Shown here one piece after another: positions 12,001 through 15,000 of a stretch of 64,000 bases of DNA. Made by a program: the position numbers. Every line of letters begins with the position of its first letter. Positions within the stretch are counted from its first letter, which is position 1. This stretch comes from Escherichia coli O157:H7 (GTDB lineage: Bacteria; Pseudomonadota; Gammaproteobacteria; Enterobacterales; Enterobacteriaceae), in the NCBI RefSeq assembly GCF_013167455.1, contig NZ_CP038328.1; one strand, given 5' to 3'.

Positions 12001-15000
12001 TCGGCCTGTTCTTCAGTGCATGGGGCGTGCCGGAACCAGTCAGATTTGAATGCATGAGAACGCCGCCCGTGCCTGCTGGCAAAGACGGCTGAATTATCAG
12101 AATTGTGTAGTCTGGAATTTTGCGCCATCGGCTTTCTCCGGTGGCACAGTGTTACTCAACAGGGGTTCAGCCCTGCGCTGAATTGTAGATGAATTCACTA
12201 ATCTTCAAAAGCAGAAAAACCAGCCTTAATCCCAGCTTCTTTCAGAGACGGCAACGATGTGACAAATTCATTTGCACGCAAAATAAAACCATCCGTCACA
12301 AGCCCATCCACAAAATGAATTAACGCAGCTCCACTCTTCCTTTGTTGAGACTGTAAACATTTAATACGGCAGTGGCTGACAATAGCGCCCTTCTCAACGC
12401 GCACAGTATAGAGGCCATCTTCACTAAAAATTTCACGTAATTCTTCGATTCTCATCAACAGAATCCTTTCTGAACCGCCCCGGGTTTCCTGGAGAGTGTT
12501 TTATCTGTGAACTCAGGCTGCCAGATCATCGTTTCCGATGGAAGCATAATAAGCTTTTTCTGCTTCTGCCGGAGGAGTATGGCCCAGCCTTCCCAGCAAT
12601 CGTCGATTGTTATACCAGTCCACCCACGTTAGTGTGGCCAGTTCCACTTCTGCACGGTTTTTCCAGCTCTTACGGTGTATTACCTCCGCTTTGTAAAGAC
12701 CATTGATGCTCTCAGCCATCGCGTTGTCATACGAGTCGCCTGTACTCCCTGTTGATGCCAGTAATCCGGCTTCTTTTAGTCGCTCCGTATAGGCCAGTGA
12801 CACATACTGAGAGCCTTTATCGCTGTGATGGATGGTGCCAGACGGACGACGGGCCCACAACGCCTGCTCCAGCGCATCCAGCACGAATGTCGTTTCCATA
12901 GACGATGAGACCCGCCACCCCACGATGTATCCGGCAAACACATCAATGATAAACGCCACATAGACGAAGCCCTGCCATGTGCTGACGTAAGTAAAATCAG
13001 CCACCCACAGCTGGTCAGGTCGTTCTGCCACGAACTGACGGTTTACGCGGTCGCCTGCGGCAACGGCTTTCCGGCTGATGGTCGTACGGACCTTTTTACC
13101 CCGGAGAACACCGGCAAGTCCCATAACCGCCATGAGACGTGCCACTGTACATCTGGCCACCCTGATTCCTTCCCGTAACAACTGACGCCAGACTTTACGC
13201 ACACCGTACACCTGATGATTTTCATCGTATACGCGCTGTATCTCTCTCTTCAGCCAGTCGTCGTGCTGCGCACGGGCACTGCGTTTATCCGGATGATGTC
13301 GCTGTTGCTGACAATGGTAATACGTTGACGGGGCAATATGCAGTTCGCTGCATACCGGTCCGACCCCGTACTGCTCACGCAGCTTATCCAGCAGTGGCAT
13401 CATTTTTTCCAGAGGCGGTCGAACTCCGCCTTCGCAAAATAAGCGGAAGCCTGGCGAAGGATATCGTTACTGCGGCGCAGTTCACGATTTTCACGTTCCA
13501 GCTCTTTCAGACGCTGACGTTCAGCGCTGGTGAGCCCACCATCACCGCCCCCGGTATCCCGCTCATGCTGGCGAACCCAGACACGCAGAGTCTCCGGCGT
13601 ACAGCCAATCTTTGGGGCAATGGAACAAATTGCCGCCCACTGTGAGTCATATTCATCCTGACTTTCCAGAACCATACGAATCGCCCGCTGACGGACTTCG
13701 GGGGAAAAACGAGTATTTTTAGTCATCCTGTTTACCTCTTTCTCAGGGAGTTTAGTCTCCAGGATTTCCGGGGCGGTTCATCCAGATAAATAGCACTCCC
13801 CTGTTCGGGGTCCATCCCTCTTCTCCCTGCGCGCTACTTAAGTATTTTTGATTCTATTCCGGCGCCGTCCGGAACTTCAAACGCGTTGAAAATAAAAACA
13901 AAAACCCGCCGAAGCGGGTTAAGTGCGGGTGCGTTGAGGATGCCTGACACATCAGAGGTGGCGAGGGATTTCTCCCCCGCCTGGTCTCTTACTCCTCAGG
14001 TTCGTAAGCTGTGAAGACAGCGACCTCCGTCTGGCCGGTTCGGATTCGTACCTCGCAGAGGTCTTTCCTCGTTACCAGTGCCGTCACTATGACGATTAAA
14101 CAGATGACGATCAGGGCGATTAACATCGCCTTTTGCTGCTTCATAGCCTGCTTCTCCTTGACCTTTCGGTCCGTAAGAGGCAATCTATATGTGACGAGCA
14201 TATAGGGGCCTCACTTCGATTTATAGTCGGGTGGGGCTTTTATCTATCTGCCGTTGGTGTTCATGCCCGAGGCAGATAGCCTCAAGCACCCGCAGCAATC
14301 CTACTTAACTCTGCCGTTACAGCAAACCGTTTTCGCCCGATATGGGAATTCCCATATCGGAATGAATTCAGTTCACCTGGCGAGGCTTAGCGTACAATTT
14401 TTTCCGTTTTGTGAGCTGCCCCTACATGCCGCTGGCGCGGCATCCGGAAAAAGAATCCACGTCCTGAAGGACGAGGATGTCAAGTGCCTTTCCTGGTCCA
14501 GCCATATTTTTTGAATGCAGGCGCCGCTTCATCGGTTTGTAGCCATTCTGCAAATCGACGGGTTTCATCATTTGCATCCTGACGTACTGTAATGTTCATA
14601 TCACGCCATATCACGTAGTCTGGCGCTATTTCCACGACATCACCAATTTCTGGATTACTGGCTGCCCAGTCAGCCCAGGTTATCCAGACATCTGCTCCAG
14701 GCTGATTCTCAAGAGCCTTACGTGCAGTTCCGCTATTGGGCGCATATAAAATAATATTTTTTCGGATTGCGGCGACAGTTTCTATATTCCCTTTACGTCC
14801 GGCAATATCTTCCCAGACGCCAGTGCCTGATGTATTACTGGTACCACCACCATCATTAACAATTACGCCAATCCCAGGTCTGGTCAGGTCGTCAATACTC
14901 CGGATATTTTTAGGATTACCTTTCTTTACCAGTAAAATACTTTTTCGCAGATAAAGAGGCTGAATATCTTTTTCACTGAAGCTGTCTTTATGGTCCCGAA

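Follow-up and report, generated by a model that had tools for sequence, protein, structure and literature searches.

A mismatched three-base target duplication flanks an IS629 insertion between hok and a rem-like gene in an Sp9-type prophage of Escherichia coli O157:H7

Insertion sequences (ISs) of the IS3 family move by a copy-out/paste-in route, in which one end of the element attacks the flank of the other end and replication then gives rise to a circle in which a spacer taken from the donor flank lies between the two abutted ends (PMC3299598, PMC7780238). In IS3 and IS911, which have TG...CA ends, an OrfAB transposase made by −1 frameshifting and a DDE (rve) core, this circle-junction spacer is 2–4 bp long, matching the target duplication in length, and the transposase nicks only the 3' ends before integration (PMC3299598, PMC7780238). 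IS629, for which IS1203v is an alternative name (PMC9330008), is the most mobile element of Escherichia coli O157:H7. It prefers prophages, where 62% of its copies are found (PMC3271280), and its target duplications have been reported as 3–4 bp, with repeats that are identical at just 21 of 47 sites (Rump et al., PMC3271280). Here we describe a copy of IS629 in a 64,000-nucleotide stretch of the O157:H7 contig NZ_CP038328.1 (assembly GCF_013167455.1), hereafter called the window, where the element lies between the hok locus and a rem-like gene of a lambdoid prophage and is bordered by two triplets that differ at one base.

The insertion itself is ordinary, that of a known IS at a previously unrecorded and unremarkable site. 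When 400 bp of each flank were joined and the resulting 800 bp searched against complete E. coli genomes, the joined flanks matched end to end in Sakai, EDL933, EC4115, TW14359 and many others, at 797 of 800 positions, a lone 3-bp gap being the sole difference. IS-free relatives thus have the two flanks side by side, and 1,310 + 3 bp were gained by the insertion. In the same search, 535 records reached an identity of 99% or more, and coverage of the query was 80% or more in 2,776 genomes. In prophage Sp9 of Sakai the native site reads ...CAACAGAATCCT TCC AGATAAATAGC..., with the core AATCCT-TCC-AGATAA, and the corresponding sequence of the window is AATCCT-TTC-[IS]-TCC-AGATAA. The target is TCC, and it has been duplicated over 3 bp with one mismatch, which falls in the copy on the rem-like side. 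A gain of exactly 3 bp over the empty site agrees with the 3–4 bp target duplications of the IS3 family. The preliminary description of this locus had been unable to identify a clean duplication, which holds for the window as read, because TTC and TCC differ at one base; comparison with the IS-free prophages, the check it had proposed, brings out the 3-bp duplication and leaves a simple insertion standing. Beyond the duplication, the left flank is 100% identical to IS-free relatives over 3.4 kb and the right flank 99.97%, and the flanks differ from Sakai at one of about 6,800 positions.

Queries that span each junction with 60 bp of flank and 60 bp of IS found no high-identity match in any of 5,426 complete E. 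coli genomes, and an exact scan of IMG/VR found no contig with the window junctions. The 47 IS629 sites catalogued in four reference strains likewise exclude this one (PMC3271280). Within these collections, the insertion is confined to the source strain. Very probably, then, the arrangement reflects a recent, strain-private transposition of IS629 into TCC of the hok–rem spacer, in the nin region of an Sp9/CP-933O-type prophage, 15 bp upstream of the rem-like ATG.

Three other O157:H7 strains, NE122, 28RC1 and F3398, were at one point candidates for carrying the same insertion, with an apparent 100% identity and 100% coverage over 2.6 kb. This proved to be an artifact of summing separate BLAST pieces: features are offset by 57 bp, direct BLAST shows another insertion point, and the junction queries are negative. 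Insertion sites thus need junction-spanning queries, as piecewise summaries gave perfect scores for an IS 57 bp away. The three strains carry their own IS629 inside the rem-like open reading frame (ORF), between the window-equivalent positions 12413 and 12414 (12414–13723 in the NE122 locus), and this is an independent event. It lies in the same prophage, with the same IS sequence and orientation, and differs from the window insertion in lying 57 bp further into the gene, where it truncates the rem-like ORF, called at 68 aa by the Prokaryotic Genome Annotation Pipeline. Its duplication, GAG [IS] GTG on a native GAG (site 12411–12413), is again 3 bp long and again mismatched at the middle base.

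The frequency of such mismatches was surveyed in IS629-type copies from IMG/VR and from E. coli loci (L001–L231), which comprise 88 distinct full-length insertions. A perfect 3-bp repeat flanks 49 of them (for 35, the fetched loci include an IS-free allele) and a perfect 4-bp repeat flanks two (one with such an allele), while 13 have one mismatch (five with such an allele) and 24 have unrelated flanks. The absence of an empty site for any of these 24 suggests that they are products of rearrangement rather than sloppy insertions. Among the 41 insertions whose empty allele was recovered, five show a single mismatch and no insertion shows more than one; all five have an exact gain of 3 or 4 bp. 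These verified cases are TTC/TCC in the window, GAG/GTG in NE122, GTG/GGG in L066, ATG/ATC in L031 and CTGT/CAGT in L074. For two further one-mismatch candidates, L047 and L070, no empty site was found in IMG/VR. In the 15 insertions with 232 flanking bases identical to the empty allele, mismatches occupy four of 90 duplication positions as against none of 3,480 flank positions (Fisher p = 4e-7). Without the two index cases, three of 39 verified insertions (8%) are mismatched, and once chance matches are corrected for, the 13 one-mismatch cases correspond to about one in eight. This frequency agrees with the earlier report of identical repeats at no more than 21 of 47 sites (PMC3271280). Single mismatches are thus far above background mutation, so that annotation pipelines that demand perfect duplications would misclassify about one in eight simple insertions.

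Differing triplets could also mean that there was no simple insertion here, and that the two flanks came to be joined through recombination of one IS629 copy with another or through a deletion mediated by an IS. Such products are common, as the 24 sampled copies with unrelated flanks and no recoverable empty site indicate, and the 21 of 47 sites with identical repeats (PMC3271280) would fit them as well. At this locus, however, the flanks are contiguous in Sakai Sp9 and in hundreds of genomes, with a difference of exactly 3 bp and near-total identity, which refutes a rearranged junction; we regard it as next to impossible. The junction could also be an assembly artifact, by which a repeat would have been assigned to the wrong one of several copies of the prophage region. 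The hok–rem region is found at 2–10 places per O157 genome, IS629 has about 20 copies, and no other genome confirms the site. Yet both junctions have the form of a real transposition, with precise TG...CA ends and a gain of 3 bp, which a mis-join would not yield, and the flanks match Sp9 specifically, beside paa and ompW. A misplaced repeat thus has a probability close to nil.

A perfect 2-bp duplication of TC in an ancestral allele with an extra T (AATCCTTTCCAG) would produce both junctions without any mismatch. That allele would have ranked first among the joined-flank hits, at 798/800, but the best hits are all at 797/800, so that a perfect 2-bp duplication is excluded. Moreover, all seven empty alleles among the fetched loci read TTCCA, diverged Qin-like prophages also keep CCTTCC, and none of the 88 sampled insertions requires a 2-bp duplication; an extra-T ancestor is very improbable. 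More weight, though still little, can be given to a perfect TCC/TCC duplication followed by an ordinary C-to-T mutation in the left copy. One transition suffices, and from a single locus it could not be told from a change made at insertion. Against it, divergence of the flanks from Sakai at one in about 6,800 positions puts the chance of a hit within the six duplication positions at about 1e-3, a like defect is seen in the independent insertion of NE122 type at a distance of 57 bp, and mismatches in the survey are concentrated in the duplications. We consider later mutation improbable. That the window mismatch arose at insertion, by whatever route, seems the better explanation; it is less certain than the insertion itself and much better supported than the particular route proposed below.

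By analogy with what is known of the family, OrfAB, made by a −1 frameshift at the A6 run under stimulation by the ALIL pseudoknot, would excise a circular copy from a donor IS629, nick both of its 3' ends and join them to the target with a 3-bp stagger, after which host repair would make the duplication. Since the circle spacer comes from the donor and has the length of the duplication, and since only the 3' ends are nicked, each 5' end of the IS would keep a 3-nt flap lying exactly over a 3-nt gap. Normally the flap would be removed and the gap filled, with a perfect duplication as the outcome. If the flap paired with the target at two of its three positions, it could be ligated instead of trimmed, and after replication one copy of the duplication would carry the donor triplet. 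TTC would in that case be a donor footprint and not a mutation. For two random triplets, the chance of exactly one difference is 14%, not far from the 8–12% observed. Under flap retention, moreover, the base most distant from the IS, at which the nick would be sealed, should never be mismatched; a mismatch there occurred in none of the five cases, a result that is not significant (p ~0.15).

Several points weigh against this fuller account. No donor copy flanked by TTC was identified, and the sole TTC duplication in the sample (L028) is absent from O157:H7 genomes. Neither imperfect IS3-family duplications nor retention of the circle spacer is described in the literature searched, and the one-mismatch duplications seen here have no counterpart in the IS3/IS911 papers that were covered. 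Flap retention is a proposal, and the consequences for prophage expression considered below are likewise what we infer, with an upstream promoter that is a consensus match. Nothing contradicts the insertion itself. We offer flap retention as the likeliest route to TTC, though a tentative and somewhat doubtful one. If it is true, about one in eight IS629 insertions would record its donor copy, and within a genome one could reconstruct which IS copy descends from which. The excess of one-mismatch IS629 duplications is the only part of this analysis of possible specialist interest, and it suggests a testable detail of the paste-in step.

IS629-type insertions of independent origin lie nearby in other lineages. 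In UTME-3 there is one inside the rem-like ORF (duplication TTA/TTA), in 23CRST038 one that is 16 bp hok-ward of the window site (CTC/CTC), in F41 one in relE (AGG/AGG), and in JNE21-003 one upstream of hokD (GTG/GTG). Insertions are also found in the Q gene of FORC_042 and upstream of hokD in F690, UTAK-6 and 2013C-4830. Four independent insertions, those of the window, the NE122 group, UTME-3 and 23CRST038, fall within about 170 bp. A regional hot spot was considered: with about 5,500 copies of the region, about seven ISs in each genome and prophages enriched five-fold, a rough expectation comes to a number similar to that observed, so that we make no claim of a hot spot. As the search finds only ISs co-oriented with the query, we make no claim about orientation either.

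The element in the window is an intact IS629, present once in the window (Table 1). The preliminary description had recognized such an element, with its terminal inverted repeats, orfA/orfB and A6 site, and the structure is borne out in full; the range it gave, 12459–13790, does contain the IS but takes in 12 and 10 bp of flank. The element runs TGAACC...GGTTCA (full start TGAACCGCCCCGG, full end CCGGGGCGGTTCA), with imperfect inverted-repeat arms of 25 nt each that are 88% complementary and end in the TG...CA typical of the IS3 family. The 3' end of orfA reads ...TGG AAA AAA TGA, and the ATG of orfB uses the final A of the A6 run, so that overlapping orfA (helix–turn–helix, HTH) and orfB (−1 frame), a slippery run and a downstream RNA stimulator form the layout characteristic of the family. 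A −1 slip at A6 is predicted to yield a 404-aa OrfAB without an internal stop. The orfB product scores 316 bits with the NCBIfam model transpos_IS3 (NF033516; cutoff 160), in keeping with an rve-type DDE transposase.

With ORFs and ends intact, the window IS629 has the same sequence as widely distributed copies: many chromosomal and plasmid copies annotated in RefSeq as 'IS3-like element IS1203 family transposase' match it at 100% identity from end to end. The copy on plasmid pO157 of Sakai (30694–32003), whose ORFs are annotated as 'encoded in insertion sequence IS629', differs at four of 1,310 positions (99.7% identity) and shares the length, inverted repeats, orfA/orfB layout, A6 run and ALIL element; otherwise only the location differs. 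Three observations were made on other copies. The flanks of the Sakai pO157 copy (L139, 30694–32003) are CAC and CAG, again a match at two of three positions. In L012 (8069–9378) both flanks contain TCACTAAAC (…CTCTCACTAAACTG [IS] CTTTCACTAAACACG…), which hints at a longer duplication or a short-repeat target. In L055 (1429–2738) the left flank is internal IS629 sequence, as in a nested or rearranged copy.

Table 1. Features of the IS629 locus and its surroundings in the window.
Feature	Position	Strand	Remarks
Left target-site duplication copy, TTC	12468–12470		rem-like side; native TCC, middle base mismatched
Right target-site duplication copy, TCC	13781–13783		hok side; same as native site
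IS629 (IS3 family), complete	12471–13780	transposase genes minus	1,310 bp; co-directional with prophage early genes
Terminal inverted repeat IRR	12471–12495		orfB-distal end, facing rem-like gene; tip 5'-TG
Terminal inverted repeat IRL	13756–13780		orfA-proximal end, facing hok; tip CA-3'
orfA	13400–13726	minus	108 aa; HTH_Tnp_1 (PF01527, E = 2.4e-12)
orfB	12513–13403	minus	296 aa, −1 frame relative to orfA; HTH_21 (PF13276) and rve DDE core (PF00665, E = 9.3e-28)
A6 slippery run	13403–13408	minus	overlaps orfA stop and orfB ATG
ALIL frameshift-stimulating pseudoknot	13329–13445	minus	Rfam RF01497, full model matched; 121.5 bits, gathering score 50, E = 3.2e-32
rem-like gene	12198–12458	minus	85 aa from ATG at 12455, or 86 aa from TTG at 12458
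Sigma-70-like promoter match TTGAAG-18-TAGAAT	13851–13880	minus	between hok terminator and insertion point
Terminator-like hairpin and T-run after hok	13903–13920	minus	123 bp before IS end at 13780
mok/hok reading frames	13989–14201	minus	hok 13989–14144; Pfam HOK_GEF PF01848, E = 1.7e-21; untouched by the insertion
sok region	14142–14291	minus	Rfam RF01794, 103.9 bits, gathering score 59
paa (AcfC-family adhesin) gene	14480–15238	minus	just upstream of hok
Fimbrial-protein pseudogene adjoining paa	15399–15932	minus	annotated in NE122 as frameshifted with internal stop
Two prophage tRNA genes	7970–8046, 8127–8202	minus	downstream of Q-like gene

The window represents an Sp9/CP-933O-type lambdoid prophage integrated beside ompW. 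Its early genes all lie on the minus strand, in the order cro-like, ydaT-like, O/P, paa, hok/mok, IS629, rem-like ORF, 92-aa ORF, DUF968, rusA and Q-like DUF1133. The placement of IS629 between hok and a Rem-like gene of 86 aa, as first described, is confirmed by the coordinates of both, and the distance of 12 bp then given is correct if translation starts at TTG; from the IS end to the ATG there are 15 bp. The ATG is the start annotated in Sakai (ECs_1774), while the TTG aligns with the first ATG of Rem. An AGGA ribosome-binding site (12463–12466) is retained in the interval that separates the gene from the IS. The 85-aa product shares 72% identity (E = 1e-39) with the RefSeq 'protein Rem' WP_000980994.1, whose gene has the same order as in the window, hokD-rem-ydfU (DUF968), in a Qin-like prophage, and the two are homologous by both measures. 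The protein matched no Pfam or NCBIfam family; it does match PHROG 340 (phrog_340), of unknown function.

On the other side of the IS, the Hok/Gef ORF (annotated as hokD in relatives), the overlapping mok frame and the sok RNA region together identify a hok/sok type I toxin–antitoxin locus. The terminator-like hairpin 123 bp from the IS places the 3' end of the hok mRNA outside the element, and the hok/sok locus is thus untouched. The Rfam sok match lies on the hok strand, though the sok RNA itself runs antisense to the hok leader; what the model covers is probably the conserved 5' region of hok. The hok–rem spacer (13781–13900, minus strand) is near-identical in Sp9 and in diverged Qin-like prophages, despite only 72% protein identity in rem, and may represent either conserved regulatory DNA or the boundary of a module. 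Folding gave no sign of a structured leader upstream of the rem-like gene, its predicted structure being no better than that of shuffled sequences (z = −1.3).

The co-oriented IS would place 1.3 kb between the early promoter, together with a possible local one, and the rem-like gene, the 92-aa ORF, DUF968, rusA and the Q-like antiterminator. The local candidate is the sigma-70-like site of the hok–rem spacer, a consensus match of which one was found as against 2.0 expected in shuffled sequences; if real, it would be cut off from the rem-like gene by the same 1.3 kb. No outward or hybrid promoter was found at the IS end that faces the rem-like gene, so that downstream expression would have to come from read-through of the IS. 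In the O157:H7 strain FRIK1275, IS629 likewise lies inside a lambdoid prophage operon, but there it is in the late operon and inactivates stx2, and downstream transcription has been shown experimentally, with plaque-forming phage still produced (PMC7430833). This precedent makes a complete block of the downstream genes unlikely, and polarity is probably partial rather than absolute. Unlike stx2::IS629, the window copy lies between genes, in the early (nin) part of a defective Sp9-type prophage that is not SOS-inducible. Sp9 of Sakai is already defective, with a non-cleavable repressor and head defects; it is not inducible by the SOS response, and it undergoes excision and packaging, but not transfer (PMC2669165). 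The insertion may add a defect to the early operon of such a prophage, one that carries paa, and the phenotypic weight of the added lesion is probably small. Given the mobility of IS629 and the prophage location of most of its copies, this insertion in itself matters little; it is one more strain-specific marker, usable for IS-based typing.

Further along the prophage, the second of the two tRNA genes is identified by ARAGORN as tRNA-Met (CAT) and annotated by RefSeq in NE122 as tRNA-Ile, and is presumably of the lysidine-modified CAU type. A DNA methyltransferase gene beside these tRNAs is annotated as frameshifted in NE122. Window positions 1–2844, on the terminase/lysis side, do not align with NE122 except for a 129-bp stretch with 92% identity, which shows that the late region of the prophage is mosaic between otherwise near-identical strains.

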